A DNA stretch of 64,000 nt from Gammaproteobacteria bacterium (GCA_002716945.1 PBCF01000002.1:482374-546373), one strand, 5' to 3'; positions 13,260 through 25,743 are shown, numbered from the stretch's first letter. Made by a program: numbers and translations. Notes: a model not told the origin generated them from the letters alone.

Positions 13260-13493
13260 TTATTTGGTTTTTTTTAAAAGAAAGTAAAATTTATTATCTT
13301 TTTCACTACTATCTAGTAGTTCATGTCCAGTTTGATTTGCAAATGATTCGAAATCCTTCACGGCGCCAGGATCAGTTGATATCACATGTAATATTTGTCC
13401 TGTTTCCATTTCATTAATTTCCTTTTTTGCCTTTATTATTGGTAAAGGACAATTTAATCCGCTAGTGTCAAGTTCCTTGTTGTACTCAGTCAT
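13260..13493 (-). CDS. tusA: TusA/SirA family sulfur carrier protein
   Basis: LDTSGLNCPLPIIK (CPxP), TDPG..DF; start at ATG 13493 with GGAG 6 nt upstream. Confidence 0.88.
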   Translation of the reverse strand: MTEYNKELDTSGLNCPLPIIKAKKEINEMETGQILHVISTDPGAVKDFESFANQTGHELLDSSEKDNKFYFLLKKTK

Positions 13494-13582
13494 TTGTAAC
13501 TCCATAAAAGTTATTCTTCATGTGGTACTATATATTAGTACATTTATATTAATTAATATATATTTAAATAAGTATATTTGAA

Positions 13583-15049: not shown

Positions 15050-15394
15050 GTGGATATGTTGAAAAAAGTCAGAAATTTACTTATCATCTTTCTTATGTTC
15101 TATGTTCCATCTTCATATTCAGATGTGATTGATGAAGGAAAAAAGCTAACATTTGAAAGGAAAAAAGGAAATTGTTTAGCGTGTCACATGATTGAAGATG
15201 GTGAATTAGCTGGAAACAATGGTCCTCCATTAATAGCTATGAAAGCTAGATTTCCAAATAAACAAGATCTCTTTAATCAAATTTGGGATGCGACTGAGAA
15301 AAATCCCAATTCCTTCATGCCTCCTTTTGGGAAACATGGTATATTAACTAAAAAAGAAATTAATAAGATAGTAGAATATCTTTATACTTTATGA
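15050..15394 (+). CDS. soxX: Sulfur oxidation c-type cytochrome SoxX
   Basis: GNCLACH heme motif, GNNGPPL, MPPFG; first gene of XYZA; start may be ATG 15056. Confidence 0.92.
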   Translation: MDMLKKVRNLLIIFLMFYVPSSYSDVIDEGKKLTFERKKGNCLACHMIEDGELAGNNGPPLIAMKARFPNKQDLFNQIWDATEKNPNSFMPPFGKHGILTKKEINKIVEYLYTL

Positions 15395-15401
15395 GGAATT
15401 T

Positions 15402-15866
15402 ATGAATAGAAGAAAATTTTTAAAAAATTCGTTACTAACTGTGGGCAGTATAATGTCTGTAGCTACTCTCTCTATTATACCTAAACGTGTATTTGCTTCT
15501 TGGCCAAAATCATCGTTTGACGAAAAAGATTTAGAGAAATCCATAAAAAGCGTTTATGGACACAGCGACTTGACAGAATCATCTAAAGTGATCTTAAAAG
15601 CACCAGAAATTGCTGAGAATGGAGCTATTGTTCCAATAAATGTAAAAACAAAATTAAAAAGAGTTGAGTCAATAATGGTTTTTGTTGAAAATAATCCACA
15701 ACCATTATCGAGTGGATATTACCTTAGTTCTTTAGCTGAACCGACCATTGGAACAAGAATTAAAATGGGAAAATCTTCTAAAGTAATTGCAGCAGTTAAA
15801 AGCGGAAATAAAGTATACAGTTCTTCAAAAGAAATTAAAATTACTATTGGTGGCTGTGGAGGATAA
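15402..15866 (+). CDS. soxY: Thiosulfate carrier protein SoxY
   Basis: Tat signal RRKFLK, APEIAENG, C-terminal TIGGCGG swinging arm. Confidence 0.97.
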   Translation: MNRRKFLKNSLLTVGSIMSVATLSIIPKRVFASWPKSSFDEKDLEKSIKSVYGHSDLTESSKVILKAPEIAENGAIVPINVKTKLKRVESIMVFVENNPQPLSSGYYLSSLAEPTIGTRIKMGKSSKVIAAVKSGNKVYSSSKEIKITIGGCGG

Positions 15867-15868
15867 TC

Positions 15869-16177
15869 ATGAGTACAATAAAAATTAGAGCAAAAGAAAG
15901 CAAAGGAATCGTAACTGTTAAAGCACTTATTAAACATCCTATGGAAACTGGAAAAAGAAAGAATAAAAAAACGGGTGAATTAATACCACCACACTACATT
16001 CAAGAAGTAATAGGACAAGCAAATGGAAAAGAAGTTATAAAAGTTTATTGGGGGCCAGCTGTATCTAAAAATCCTTACTTAACTTTTAAATATAAAGGTG
16101 AAAAGGGAGATAAAGTTGAACTAACGTGGGTTGATAATAAGGGTAATAGAGATTCAAAAAATCAAGCTGCTAAATAA
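15869..16177 (+). CDS. soxZ: Thiosulfate carrier complex subunit SoxZ
   Basis: HPMETG..K, HYIQ, SKNPY, WVDNKG; no signal peptide, as expected. Confidence 0.95.
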   Translation: MSTIKIRAKESKGIVTVKALIKHPMETGKRKNKKTGELIPPHYIQEVIGQANGKEVIKVYWGPAVSKNPYLTFKYKGEKGDKVELTWVDNKGNRDSKNQAAK

Positions 16178-16180
16178 ACT

Positions 16181-17020
16181 ATGAAAATGAAAAAATTTTT
16201 GATTATACCTTTTATAGTTTTATTAATTTTTGGTATTGAAGCAAAAACATCCCCTGAAGAAGACTTAACCGATTTTAGAAATCATTTCAAAGAACTTTTT
16301 CCTAATACACCATTCAGTGATTTTGCAAATGGTGTATATTCAATAGATAAATCATCACGAGAACAATGGGAGTCCATCGAAGATTTTCCTCCTTATGAAA
16401 TAAATATAGAGAATGGCGAAGAGTTATTCAATGAACCATTTAAAAATGGAAACAAATATGCATCATGTTTTGAAAATGGGGGAATTGGTATTCGTCAAAA
16501 TTATCCCTATTTTGATGAAAATAAAAATAAAATTATTACTCTTGAGTTAGCAATTAATAATTGTAGAAAAAAAAATAATGAAAAACCTTTAAATTATTAT
16601 AAGGGTGGAGATATGGCTGATATCTCAGCCTATATGGCTTACACATCTAGAGGTAATATAATTAATATAGAAATTCCAAATAATATGGAAGCTCTTGATG
16701 CTTATGAAGCAGGAAAGAGATTATACTTTACAAAAAAAGGACAATTAAATTTCTCATGTGCAGATTGTCATGTATGGAAATCAGGAACTAAGCTGCGTGC
16801 AGATATTACGAGTCCTGGAATAGGACATCCTACACACTTCCCTGTTTATAGATCTGTAGCAGGACGATTAGTAACATTACATGAAAGATATGCCGGCTGT
16901 CTTAACAGAATTAGAGCTAAACCTTATAAAGGACAGAGTGCGGAATATAGAAATCTTGAGTATTTTATGACTTTTATGAGCAATGGTTTAGAAATAAATG
17001 GTCCAGGTTCAAGAAAATAG
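16181..17020 (+). CDS. soxA: SoxA cytochrome c (mono-heme type)
   Basis: Single CADCH; GQLNFSC, FPVYR, RYAGC...RA active-site Cys; N-terminal Cys pair in place of a second heme. Confidence 0.93.
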   Translation: MKMKKFLIIPFIVLLIFGIEAKTSPEEDLTDFRNHFKELFPNTPFSDFANGVYSIDKSSREQWESIEDFPPYEINIENGEELFNEPFKNGNKYASCFENGGIGIRQNYPYFDENKNKIITLELAINNCRKKNNEKPLNYYKGGDMADISAYMAYTSRGNIINIEIPNNMEALDAYEAGKRLYFTKKGQLNFSCADCHVWKSGTKLRADITSPGIGHPTHFPVYRSVAGRLVTLHERYAGCLNRIRAKPYKGQSAEYRNLEYFMTFMSNGLEINGPGSRK

Positions 17021-17042
17021 GTTATAATTGAAATAGCTAGTT

Positions 17043-17555
17043 ATGAAAATATTAGAAAATAAATTTGTATTAATATTTATTTTAACTTTATCACTGACGT
17101 CCTGCGCAACTATCGATGGAATGATGGCATCTGAAGATGAAAGTGCCCCGGAAGTCAAAGATGTTAGCTTAGATCAAAGGCTGCAGATTTCAATACCAAT
17201 TCCAGATAATTCTAAATATGCAACTGATAAAACTGTAATTTTTGGTGAGGGTAATAGATTTACTGGTGTTTTATATCTCATACATGACGAAAGCGCAGAA
17301 GATGTGGTTGATTTTTTTAGAAAAGCTATGATAAGTGAGGGCTGGACAGAACTTGCGATCGTTAGAAGTAATTTTATATTATTAAATTTTGATAAAGAAG
17401 ATAGATTTGCTACTATTAAAGTATCAAGAAAAGTCTTTAATAACTCTGAATCTGAAATAACCATAGGACCTAAAACATCTGCTACTATAAACAGAAGTAT
17501 AAATATCGAGCCAGAAACACAAGAAAGTATTGAAGAACCTTTTGAAATTCAATAA
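17043..17555 (+). CDS. Uncharacterised lipoprotein downstream of soxA
   Basis: Signal peptide with lipobox SLTSC; 170 aa; 22 nt after the soxA stop on the same strand. Confidence 0.75.
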   Translation: MKILENKFVLIFILTLSLTSCATIDGMMASEDESAPEVKDVSLDQRLQISIPIPDNSKYATDKTVIFGEGNRFTGVLYLIHDESAEDVVDFFRKAMISEGWTELAIVRSNFILLNFDKEDRFATIKVSRKVFNNSESEITIGPKTSATINRSINIEPETQESIEEPFEIQ

Positions 17556-17557
17556 AA

Positions 17558-18415
17558 CTATTTGATTTTATCTAACAAAACATCTATAAGATCATCAAAA
17601 TAAAAGTCTCTAAAAAAGTGATCTGCATCTTCAATCATAATCAACTTAATATTTTGTTTTTTCTTCATGTTTTGAATTCTTTTGTATGTATTTGGCACAA
17701 ATGTATCTTCAGATGCAGTAATTATATATATATTTTGATTAGTTAGTTGTAAAAGCCCAATTAAAGAATTCTCACTATCAATGTCATAATAGTCTAAAAA
17801 TGTTTTGTTACTAACTTCGGTATCGGCGCAACCTAAAAATTCAATTTTTAAAATCTTATAATTTTCTTTTTTAATTTTAGTAATATCTATGTTGTATTTT
17901 TTTTCGTATGTTTTTCTTGTGTTATGAAAAAAATCAGAGATTGGAGCTATTAAAAATATTGAGTTAACTAACAACTTATCTGATGTATTTAAATTGTGAT
18001 AAAATTGCATTATATTTAATCCACCTCTTGAATGACCAATTAGATAAATTTTTTCATATCCTAATTTTTGTATATAATTAAACCATAATTTTATTTCATT
18101 GATAGAATCTGATTGCAAATGTTTATGTTTTATATCACAAGGTAAGAAATCATTTGCACGATTATCGATGCCATAACTCAAATTTACTGACAATGAATCA
18201 ATATTATTTTCTAATAACGCTGAACCTAAAGATGTGATAAGTTCTAGATTTTGGTGCCCTCTAGTACCATGTAATATAAGAGCTATAGACTTTGATTTTG
18301 CATTCGTATAATGAAAACCATTTAATCTTTTACCGATATTATTTTCTATTTGCACTTTCTTACAAAATGCTTCTGTGGAAAAAAATAATAAACAGATAAT
18401 TAAAATATTTTTCAT
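17558..18415 (-). CDS. Secreted alpha/beta hydrolase (DUF1749-like)
   Basis: Signal peptide, LHGTRG, GHSRGG nucleophile elbow, ED.FV, DADHFF catalytic His. Confidence 0.82.
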   Translation of the reverse strand: MKNILIICLLFFSTEAFCKKVQIENNIGKRLNGFHYTNAKSKSIALILHGTRGHQNLELITSLGSALLENNIDSLSVNLSYGIDNRANDFLPCDIKHKHLQSDSINEIKLWFNYIQKLGYEKIYLIGHSRGGLNIMQFYHNLNTSDKLLVNSIFLIAPISDFFHNTRKTYEKKYNIDITKIKKENYKILKIEFLGCADTEVSNKTFLDYYDIDSENSLIGLLQLTNQNIYIITASEDTFVPNTYKRIQNMKKKQNIKLIMIEDADHFFRDFYFDDLIDVLLDKIK

Positions 18416-18422
18416 TTTCTTT

Positions 18423-18495
18423 TAGGGCGTACAGGATTCGAACCTGTGACAAATGGCTTAAAAGGCCACTGCTCTACCAACTGAGCTAACGCCCC
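18423..18495 (-). tRNA. tRNA-Lys(UUU), CCA not encoded
   Basis: Cloverleaf: GGGGCGT/ACGCCCT acceptor stem, GCTC/GAGC D-stem, GTGGC-CTTTTAA-GCCAT anticodon arm, ACAGG-TTCGAAT-CCTGT T-arm. Confidence 0.96.
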
Positions 18496-18496
18496 A

Positions 18497-19687
18497 TTAT
18501 ATTTTCTCTAATGTACGAAATCTACTAGGTATTAATTTTAAATCAGCTAATGCAGACTTTAAAGTATCAAGAAAACTACTATCTTCATAAACTGTTTTAT
18601 AATACTCTATTTTCATTGTAAGAGCAGCCCCTAAAATTATAGATGCTAAAGCAATAAATGAACCTATCGCTAAGGTTGAAACGCCTGCAACACCTTGACC
18701 AATTGTGCAGCCTAGAGATAAAACACCTCCAATACCAATAAGCACAGCACCTACTATATGTCTGAAAAAATCTTTTGTTGAAGAGAACCATTCAATCCTA
18801 AAACTACCAGAGAAAATTGAATAAATAAACGATCCTATAATAGTTGAAATTAAAATAGTAACTCCAAAAGTTAAATAATACATATCTGCGCTTTTAGTTG
18901 CGAATATTAATGTTTCGCCCATAGGATTAATAAAGCTTACTGATTGTACTCCTACTCCGGGTAACGGCGTATCTAAAAAATCATTAGCTTCAATCCACTC
19001 TTTGCCTAAAGAACCTCCTGTAATGTACCATGCTATTACTACAACCAGTCCGACCGTTAAGCCTGACAATATATTATCAGTATTCTGTATAAATTTTCCT
19101 TTCTTAAAAATAAAGATAAATAAAAGAACGGATATTATTACTGCAATAACAAAACTTAATGATTTGCTAGCACTGTCAGCAAATAAAATAGAAGGTATTG
19201 ATTGTTCATAAATTCCAAAATTGGCAAGATCTGGGCTTATTGGGCTCATCCAACTATGAAATACTATTCCATAAAAATCTGTTCTGGTCATTAGGTAAGC
19301 CATTATTCCAGCAACAATTATTACAATTAAGGATTTTAAATTACCCGCTCCAAATCTTATTAAAACTTTATTACCACATCCACTAGTTAATGTCATTCCA
19401 ATGCCAAACATTAATCCACCAAATATATATCTGGGCCAAAAGAAAACAGAATTCCTATATGGTATTCTAGAATCGCTTGCATTGATTATATTATTTAACT
19501 CTAAAAGAGAGACACCTAAAGTAGCTATGGCAATAGCCAACATCCAAGATTTAAATCTATTTAAATCGCCTATATTAACCCAGTCAGAAACGGCACCCAT
19601 TGTACAAAAATTGGTTTTATTGACTACAATACCAAGCATTAAACCTAATAATGCAACATATTGTAACAGTGTGTATGAAACTTCCAT
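18497..19687 (-). CDS. YeeE/YedE (SoxT/TsuA-type) sulfur-compound transporter
   Basis: Multi-TM; FCTMGA, SGCG, LGCTIGQG conserved Cys motifs. Confidence 0.9.
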   Translation of the reverse strand: MEVSYTLLQYVALLGLMLGIVVNKTNFCTMGAVSDWVNIGDLNRFKSWMLAIAIATLGVSLLELNNIINASDSRIPYRNSVFFWPRYIFGGLMFGIGMTLTSGCGNKVLIRFGAGNLKSLIVIIVAGIMAYLMTRTDFYGIVFHSWMSPISPDLANFGIYEQSIPSILFADSASKSLSFVIAVIISVLLFIFIFKKGKFIQNTDNILSGLTVGLVVVIAWYITGGSLGKEWIEANDFLDTPLPGVGVQSVSFINPMGETLIFATKSADMYYLTFGVTILISTIIGSFIYSIFSGSFRIEWFSSTKDFFRHIVGAVLIGIGGVLSLGCTIGQGVAGVSTLAIGSFIALASIILGAALTMKIEYYKTVYEDSSFLDTLKSALADLKLIPSRFRTLEKI

Positions 19688-25024: not shown

Positions 25025-25096
25025 ATCAAAATTCTATTATACAAAAAATTTGTCCTTTTATCTCAATTTAGTGTTATAATGCATGCTAATTTAAAT

Positions 25097-25417
25097 ATGA
25101 AATCAATCGTAATATCAATTTTTTTAATACTTCTCATAGGAATCCTAAATAAACCAGTACTCGCAGATGATATTGCATTAGGTAAGGCTAAATCCGAAAC
25201 TTGCTTGGGGTGTCATGCAATACCAGGATATAATAATGTTTATCCCACATATAAAGTACCTAAATTAGGTGGGCAGCATGCTGAATATATAAAAATAGCA
25301 TTAATATCATATAGGGATCAGCAGAGATCGCATAACACAATGCATGCAAATGCAGCTTCACTAACCGACGAAGATATAGATCATATTGCAAAATATTTCG
25401 AATCAATAACCAAATGA
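25097..25417 (+). CDS. Mono-heme class I cytochrome c (c553/c4-like)
   Basis: Signal peptide, CLGCH, PKLGGQH, Met ligand region HNTMHA; start likely ATG 25097. Confidence 0.88.
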   Translation: MKSIVISIFLILLIGILNKPVLADDIALGKAKSETCLGCHAIPGYNNVYPTYKVPKLGGQHAEYIKIALISYRDQQRSHNTMHANAASLTDEDIDHIAKYFESITK

Positions 25418-25743
25418 AAAAGTATTTTTTTATTTATTTCTTAATTCTGTTTTTTCAATCATCTTATATTGAAGCTAGTGCTAACTATGATGCTGGAAAA
25501 TCTAAAGCACAGACTTGTATAGCATGTCACGGTGTAAATGGTAACTCGACTAACAAAATGTATCCAAAGCTTGCCGGGCAATATAAAGATTATTTGGTAT
25601 ATGTATTACAAGAATATAAAAGTGGTAACAGGAAAAATGCTATTATGAATGGCTTCGCATCTAATTTAACAGAACAAGATATTAATGATTTATCACTTTA
25701 TTTCTCCAAACAGAAAGGTCTTGAAGTGCTCCCTTCGAAATAA
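25414..25743 (+). CDS. Mono-heme class I cytochrome c (c553/c4-like)
   Basis: Signal peptide, CIACH, YPKLAGQY, NAIM. Confidence 0.9.
   Translation: MKKYFFIYFLILFFQSSYIEASANYDAGKSKAQTCIACHGVNGNSTNKMYPKLAGQYKDYLVYVLQEYKSGNRKNAIMNGFASNLTEQDINDLSLYFSKQKGLEVLPSK

Follow-up and report, generated by a model that had tools for sequence, protein, structure and literature searches.

The stretch analysed here, a window of 64,000 nucleotides from a gammaproteobacterial genome (GCA_002716945.1, PBCF01000002.1:482374-546373), carries at positions 15050..19687 a locus of the Sox system, the principal pathway by which bacteria oxidise thiosulfate, together with genes for an exported alpha/beta serine hydrolase and a lipoprotein. 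The plus strand encodes SoxX, a monohaem c-type cytochrome (15050..15394; TIGR04485, 98.5 bits against a cut-off of 61), the carrier subunit SoxY with a twin-arginine leader (15402..15866; TIGR04488, 162 bits, cut-off 125), SoxZ (15869..16177; TIGR04490, 132 bits, cut-off 76), a monohaem SoxA (16181..17020; TIGR04484, 220 bits, cut-off 110) and, directly 3' of soxA, a lipoprotein of 170 residues with an LTSC lipobox (17043..17555). Converging on these from the minus strand are the hydrolase gene (17558..18415; PF00561 above its cut-off), whose product has the triad Ser129-Asp237-His266 and which is separated from the lipoprotein gene by a gap of 2 bases, a tRNA-Lys(TTT) gene found by ARAGORN (18422..18496) and the gene for a YeeE/YedE-family (Sulf_transp) membrane protein (18497..19687; PF04143, 182 bits, cut-off 27). 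A first-pass annotation of the window had described the same gene order and a mono-heme SoxA, and both hold: the open reading frames (ORFs), the NCBIfam cut-offs and ARAGORN agree on the order, and SoxA has a single CxxCH.

Read from the sequence, the C-terminal arm of SoxY is GGCGG and contains Cys152. Alignment with solved SoxA shows that the active-site Cys240 is retained and that the first haem motif has shrunk to a single cysteine, Cys96, possibly paired with Cys128. The YeeE-family protein scores far under every TsuA/YedE NCBIfam cut-off, though it satisfies that of Sulf_transp, and is likely to import sulfur for reverse dissimilatory sulfite reductase (rDsr). A tusA-family sulfur carrier gene (13260..13505, minus strand; PF01206, 85 bits; NCBIfam TusA, 66.7 bits, under the cut-off of 78) lies 1.5 kb upstream of soxX, beyond the 15050..19687 stretch; it adjoins sox in 18 of 20 loci from the family to which this genome belongs, the remaining two loci being incomplete. 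A promoter and terminator scan of the locus gave no signal above chance. In RNA runs, shares were 0.05-0.07 and short contigs extended across soxX, soxY, soxZ, the lipoprotein gene and bepA only. Two tandem monohaem c-type cytochromes at window positions 25079-25743, 5 kb from the locus and syntenic in the relatives G003 and G008, might, as a guess, be electron acceptors for SoxAX.

The genome (G000; 1.09 Mb, 29-31% G+C, 6 contigs, rated 100% complete and 4.71% contaminated) supplies most of what the locus lacks. Since soxB and a SoxK-like gene are found elsewhere and soxC nowhere, the absence of soxB, soxCD and a recognisable soxK from the 64 kb, reported in the first-pass annotation, is real but does not extend to the genome for soxB and soxK. 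The soxB gene (C4:285091-286776; 766 bits, cut-off 550, without stops) shares its contig with the locus at a distance of about 210 kb and lies between msrPQ and glyA; it overlaps the end of msrQ (L002:7612-12149), and the order msrPQ-soxB-glyA is kept in 10 of the 11 sufficiently long family loci, the eleventh of which begins at soxB. For SoxK, the ORF 3' of soxA was taken from 30 loci of the class; five of these ORFs form one small family, and all five match the NCBIfam SAXB model. The profile built from them and the SAXB model itself (NF052674) each find one gene in the genome, which encodes an exported protein of 100 residues 114 kb from the locus (C4:613718-614020; L211:1480-1782) and matches the SAXB model at E 2e-20 and 73 bits, under the cut-off of 95. 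In all 30 family loci it is a solitary gene flanked by proS and a LysM/wrbA pair; at E<=0.001, 35 of the 37 family genomes have it, none above the cut-off, and none of 14 controls does; soxB is present in 28 and dsrA in 27 of the same 37. Genome-wide, no soxC was found above cut-off, the sole match being MsrP at 26 bits against a cut-off of 420; soxD was covered without a search by its own model.

A dsr cluster is located on contig C1, and sat-aprM-aprBA, where we take aprM to be such from its gene position, on C4. DsrA, B, E, F, H, C, K and O and an L-type protein are above their cut-offs; dsrM and dsrP are best matches yet under theirs, and dsrJ is recognised by its position and three CxxCH motifs only. 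RuBisCO was not found in the genome, and its two dihaem candidates for TsdA are MauG-like and c4-like instead. Reading by eye, without dedicated models, of 9 PF07992 proteins, 3 molybdopterin proteins and 53 proteins with FAD/FeS motifs recognised no SQR, FccB, sHdr or SoeABC. Contig C1 also encodes a 692-residue molybdopterin oxidoreductase with a 582-residue GltD/DsrL-like flavoprotein and a divergent Cys-rich ORF of 201 residues (L028:6732-11276). Divergent from dsrA (L026:18907-19764, L027:5-1287) are an ORF of 285 residues that looks by eye to be of TauD type, a lone Cas6/Cmx6 (TIGR02807 above cut-off), a second DsrC/TusE-family protein and an ORF of 77 residues. The idea that C1 is contamination was rejected: it has no duplicated genes shared with C4, its dsr genes adjoin ribF-ileS-lspA-ispH, and dsrA recurs across the family. 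Contigs C2 and C6 have 21 duplicated gene pairs between them (ftsZ- and mur-like) and these small contigs are probably the contamination; contigs C3 and C4 have ten duplicated gene pairs.

The locus is thus almost certainly part of a truncated Sox system that is split over the genome and coupled to rDsr, which is a known arrangement. This was one of the two explanations put forward in the first-pass annotation, and it stands, with soxB and the SoxK-like gene at other sites of the contig and rDsr in place of SoxCD. SoxXYZA with SoxB, without SoxCD and with rDsr, is described in the accessible text of PMC7826175. According to PMC13500833, 1205 soxB genomes have no detectable cluster, through fragmentation or true segregation, and 615 have rDsr. 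PMC4891895 shows that soxB and soxXYZA are separated in Thioalkalimicrobium cyclicum and gives SoxA, SoxX and SoxK as the normal composition of type III SoxAX. The present system resembles that type in its monohaem SoxA, short SoxX and exported NF052674 match, but differs in that the SoxK-like protein is under the cut-off and encoded away from soxA; the likeness of SoxA is one of haem number and active-site cysteine. With the truncated Sox plus rDsr of Candidatus Ruthia and Vesicomyosocius and of Allochromatium vinosum it shares the gene inventory and the scattering of the sox genes, whereas here no RuBisCO was found, the soxK-like gene stands alone at proS/wrbA, and an exported serine hydrolase and a lipoprotein accompany the locus. 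SoxAX, with SoxK encoded elsewhere, would load thiosulfate onto Cys152 of SoxY, and SoxB, likewise encoded elsewhere, would release sulfate from it; the sulfane sulfur would go by way of YeeE and TusA to rDsr, and sulfite would exit through AprMBA and Sat. The organism would accordingly be a gammaproteobacterium with a streamlined genome (1.1 Mb) and no RuBisCO, oxidising thiosulfate by a known truncated route, the flux being deduced from the genes.

The second explanation in the first-pass annotation was a variant module, in which the lipoprotein and the hydrolase supply accessory functions; taken as a module of replacements, it would have the lipoprotein stand in for SoxK and the hydrolase for SoxB. 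Both proteins are exported, and the lipoprotein gene comes straight after soxA, a frequent position for soxK, in 19 of the 19 family loci retrieved; it is present in 21 of 24 family genomes. With soxB and a SoxK homologue in the genome, however, nothing needs replacement, and relatives truly without soxB have lost the hydrolase too. The lipoprotein itself is unlike SoxK: hhalign gives a probability of 0.7% against the SoxK profile, no NCBIfam model matches at E<=0.1, and its predicted model is alpha/beta whereas SAXB is a small helical protein. The model (predicted local distance difference test, pLDDT, 72) may share the alpha/beta fold of DcrB, PsbP and PA1624 (PA1624: Z 10.4, root-mean-square deviation 3.5, 103 residues aligned; DcrB: Z 8.7, deviation 2.7, 95 aligned); Foldseek returned no match for it at E<=0.001. 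The family of the lipoprotein is wide and unnamed, with 719 clusters at E<=0.001, and the Atlas gave unnamed clusters only, plus one family on 13% of members. When its profile was run on 301 genomes of the class there were 8 matches, of which 2 are in the family, 2 are clear outside homologues and 4 are weak, contain internal stops and were left out. Both clear outside homologues are in soxA-negative genomes, and the lipoprotein was accordingly rejected as a Sox partner; it is probably an envelope lipoprotein and a syntenic passenger. The association of this protein with sox that the first-pass annotation had proposed is thus abandoned, and a module of replacements is very improbable. A weaker form of the idea survives for the hydrolase, given its co-occurrence with soxA over the class and its predicted binding to SoxYZ.

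The hydrolase has, by eye, a signal-peptide-like N-terminus, followed by a GHSRGG elbow. Its model has a pLDDT of 93 and a best Foldseek E value of 4.5e-16. For conservation, 95 homologues from outside the family were found and thinned at 70% identity to 71. Ser129 is conserved in 70 of 71, Asp237 and His266 each in 70 of 70, and His49, Arg86, Cys93, Trp111 and Cys196 are invariant in all 71. The closest solved folds are feruloyl/cinnamoyl (aryl) esterases (3PF9, 7XRH and 7WWH; template modelling scores 0.66-0.71, 16-21% identity, E ~1e-15), with which it has the Ser-Asp-His triad in common; the invariant cysteine pair, Arg86 and an HFFRD..D/E motif mark the hydrolase family and may set it apart from the esterases. 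Homologues carry only generic names in the source databases, and several of them have a false N-terminal extension that is read through the tRNA-Lys gene (window 18422-18496). One locus, L177, has three hydrolase-family ORFs next to a LysR regulator. A literature search, which left most subscription papers and supplements outside, returned no description of the hydrolase; supplementary transcriptome tables could list it.

The distribution of the hydrolase follows that of Sox. A profile built from the family, applied at E<=1e-8 to 300 genomes of the class (G242 was unscored), matched 43, while soxA is present in 126 of 301 genomes of the same sample. Outside the family, all 41 carriers, drawn from 34 families, are soxA-positive, compared with 83 of 257 non-carriers; none of the 174 soxA-negative class genomes has the hydrolase, and the matches at E<=1e-30 are soxA-positive in 27 cases of 27. 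The first profile under-detects, since the non-carrier G151 later gave a partial match with a wider one. A wider profile gave 7 outside matches among 300 genomes of the phylum, a sample without a soxA background; all five strong matches and one partial match were in soxA-positive genomes. The hydrolase ranges over about a third of the sampled Sox-encoding gammaproteobacteria and some alphaproteobacteria, and carriers include Thiothrix, Thioalkalivibrio, Thiomicrorhabdus, Thiocapsa, Sedimenticola and Magnetovibrio. Genes for dsrA and soxC were compared in 80 of the 124 outside soxA genomes, namely all 41 carriers and every second non-carrier (39 of 83). The hydrolase showed no preference for genomes with rDsr (27 of 41 carriers vs 29 of 39 non-carriers) or SoxCD (11 of 41 vs 8 of 39), and it was rejected on this ground as a replacement of SoxCD or a marker of rDsr.

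Gene loss within the family gives a second link. Nine family genomes are soxB-negative; six of these also lack glyA and in one glyA is at a contig end, so that seven of the nine absences are assembly gaps. In the near-complete G003 (96%) and G008 (98%), msrQ abuts glyA and the tRNA-Lys gene abuts the lipoprotein gene on contiguous DNA. Both soxB and the hydrolase are lost from them, with only E~1e-5 matches elsewhere, while soxXYZA, yeeE, tusA, the SoxK-like gene and dsrA are kept (loci L205-L208). G013, of the same genus, has kept the hydrolase, and its soxB region is unassembled. G003 and G008 therefore possess the true SoxB-less Sox locus that the first-pass annotation suspected, but in a relative.

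Structure prediction suggests how the hydrolase might be connected to Sox. SoxY (residues 35-154), SoxZ and the hydrolase (residues 19-285, with alignment) were submitted as a three-chain complex, which scored 0.73 (runs 0.73, 0.75 and 0.73) against 0.01 for the best of 3 controls. The score mark is passed by 116 of 157 solved and 2 of 215 mismatched pairs, and is roughly valid for a three-chain job with its own alignment. At least 62% of contacts agreed among runs, and the pLDDT of the partner was at least 90. On the carrier, the predicted interface comprises SoxY 68-78, R119, T148 and the GGCGG arm (150-154) and SoxZ K5, R7, K18, L20 and Y70; on the hydrolase side it includes Cys93, Cys196, the loop that follows His49 and the stretch 267-274 that comes after the catalytic His. 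Charges are complementary in the best predicted pairs: SoxZ K18 and R7 face D274 and D270, and SoxY R119 faces D270. Ser129 is absent from the listed contacts. Conservation at the interface is 0.75 vs 0.57 for the hydrolase (n=71), 0.97 vs 0.70 for SoxY and 0.84 vs 0.69 for SoxZ (n=25 each). The prediction supports, without showing, binding of the hydrolase to SoxYZ with the SoxY arm at the active-site loops. On this model the conserved acidic residues E58, D270 and D274 would dock on the basic conserved surface formed by SoxZ K5, R7 and K18 and SoxY R119, and the hydrolase probably brings the cysteine arm of SoxY to its active site in this way. In being exported and predicted to receive the SoxY arm it would resemble SoxB, the known SoxYZ-binding thiosulfohydrolase. 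It differs from SoxB in being optional, in coexisting with it and in fold, a serine alpha/beta fold as opposed to the dimetal 5'-nucleotidase fold, and the SoxB model TIGR04486 does not match it.

Taken as a whole, the explanation that we prefer, with slightly better than even confidence, is a split truncated Sox system to which the hydrolase is an optional SoxYZ-binding accessory, perhaps with salvage chemistry. A number of points weigh against it. Only 41 of the 124 outside soxA-positive genomes carry the hydrolase, which is therefore not core; the association with soxA, at a Fisher P of 2e-18, is overstated because kin are not independent; the weak phylum match in G609 (E 2e-9) is soxA-negative; and G003 and G008 are sisters, so that the joint loss of soxB and hydrolase is one event. 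The closest solved folds belong to ordinary aryl esterases. The conservation of the interface comes partly from nearness to the active site, none of the three controls is an alpha/beta hydrolase, and the three-chain job with its own alignment is unlike the calibration set. Although no complex of an alpha/beta hydrolase with SoxYZ turned up among solved relatives, a solved SoxB-SoxYZ entry, 4UWQ, exists and could bias where enzymes get placed on SoxYZ.

Outside the family the gene neighbourhood lends the proposal little support. A sox gene is present in the retrieved flank of 3 of 60 outside genome loci (0.4-1.1 expected by chance, P 0.007-0.10) and of 2 of 40 outside metagenome loci, which are partly the same records. 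Commoner neighbours among the 60 are ArsR/rhodanese genes (11), redoxins (10), ArsS-type radical SAM genes (6) and fatty-acid hydroxylases (6), and GT2/DUF2064 glycosyltransferase and DsrE genes also recur. These neighbours are the main support for an alternative in which the Sox system is an ordinary split one, the lipoprotein and the hydrolase are both syntenic passengers, and the hydrolase never touches SoxYZ, being an esterase of an ArsR-rhodanese/ArsS/glycosyltransferase/redoxin island or of the sulfur-oxidiser lifestyle in general. Its gene lies behind a tRNA and points away from the soxXYZA transcript, feruloyl esterases match it in fold, and two thirds of soxA genomes do without it. 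Against a mere passenger speak its absence from all soxA-negative class genomes, the score and complementary conserved charges of the predicted complex, metagenome locus L306 (GC 53%), where soxXYZ follows the hydrolase gene directly in the same orientation, and its loss together with soxB, whereas an ArsS cluster lies about 88 kb off in the genome studied here. That cluster, of ArsS-type radical SAM, GT2 and DUF2064 genes (C4:588400-590639), is a frequent neighbour of the hydrolase in other sulfur oxidisers. We regard the passenger explanation as unlikely but serious. The association with sox that the first-pass annotation had proposed is, for the hydrolase, borne out by co-occurrence with soxA and by locus L306. 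Physical proximity to sox is rare, and soxB and a SoxK-like gene do exist elsewhere in the genome.

If the hydrolase does bind SoxYZ, it might do so as a loader or unloader instead of a repair enzyme, moving sulfur between the SoxY arm and polythionates, organosulfur thioesters or the YeeE/TusA route, possibly through Cys93 and Cys196. These two invariant cysteines both fall in the predicted interface, yeeE is the upstream neighbour of the hydrolase in the family, and rhodanese, DsrE and redoxin genes recur around its homologues. An rDsr unloader would nevertheless predict a preference for rDsr genomes, which is not seen, nor is one for SoxCD; yeeE is found in 0 of 60 outside hydrolase loci, and two invariant cysteines in an exported protein would most simply be a structural disulfide. 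Loading or unloading seems to us doubtful.

The chemistry that we tentatively favour is salvage of blocked SoxY adducts. Reconstitution work in PMC5336275 shows that cells contain SoxY-S-sulfonate, that this form sustains no Sox activity, and that its binding to SoxB is six-fold weaker than that of the active adduct; the accessible text names no enzyme for clearing it. The hydrolase would cleave such a dead-end adduct, for example SoxY-S-sulfonate left unprocessed by SoxB, and return the carrier to the cycle. An optional adduct-clearing enzyme would fit the occurrence of the hydrolase in both SoxCD and rDsr genomes, its absence from two thirds of soxA genomes, its loose linkage and its loss with soxB. 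In Paracoccus, SoxS/SoxV reactivate SoxYZ by thiol-disulfide chemistry; the hydrolase would likewise be a periplasmic accessory that repairs an inactive carrier, by different chemistry and with an unrelated fold. The full proposal, an unrecognised SoxYZ partner whose active site admits the SoxY arm and cleaves a sulfur-sulfur adduct such as the S-sulfonate, is possible but short of probable. Beyond salvage, loading or unloading, and no Sox role at all, the remaining probability goes to other SoxYZ-linked roles.

To our knowledge the parts list of Sox is regarded as settled. A Sox locus without soxB and soxK, as posed by the first-pass annotation, is ordinary; what may be new is the hydrolase, a credible and apparently undescribed Sox accessory and candidate SoxYZ partner. 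The split layout has a practical consequence: the available part of PMC13500833 states a survey rule that requires soxB beside soxA, and cluster-based surveys using such a rule would miss the marine family of sulfur oxidisers described here. A widespread enzyme that docks on SoxYZ would bring the clearance of SoxY-S-sulfonate within reach of a test on a single purified protein, and the hydrolase is present in organisms in culture, namely Magnetovibrio blakemorei, Thiohalophilus thiocyanatoxydans and Thioalkalivibrio. If the proposal is true, the hydrolase would give the Sox cycle a step that repairs the carrier and would extend the alpha/beta hydrolase fold to inorganic S-S chemistry, and in the lineage of G003 and G008 rDsr would be fed by a sulfonate-free Sox system without SoxB.

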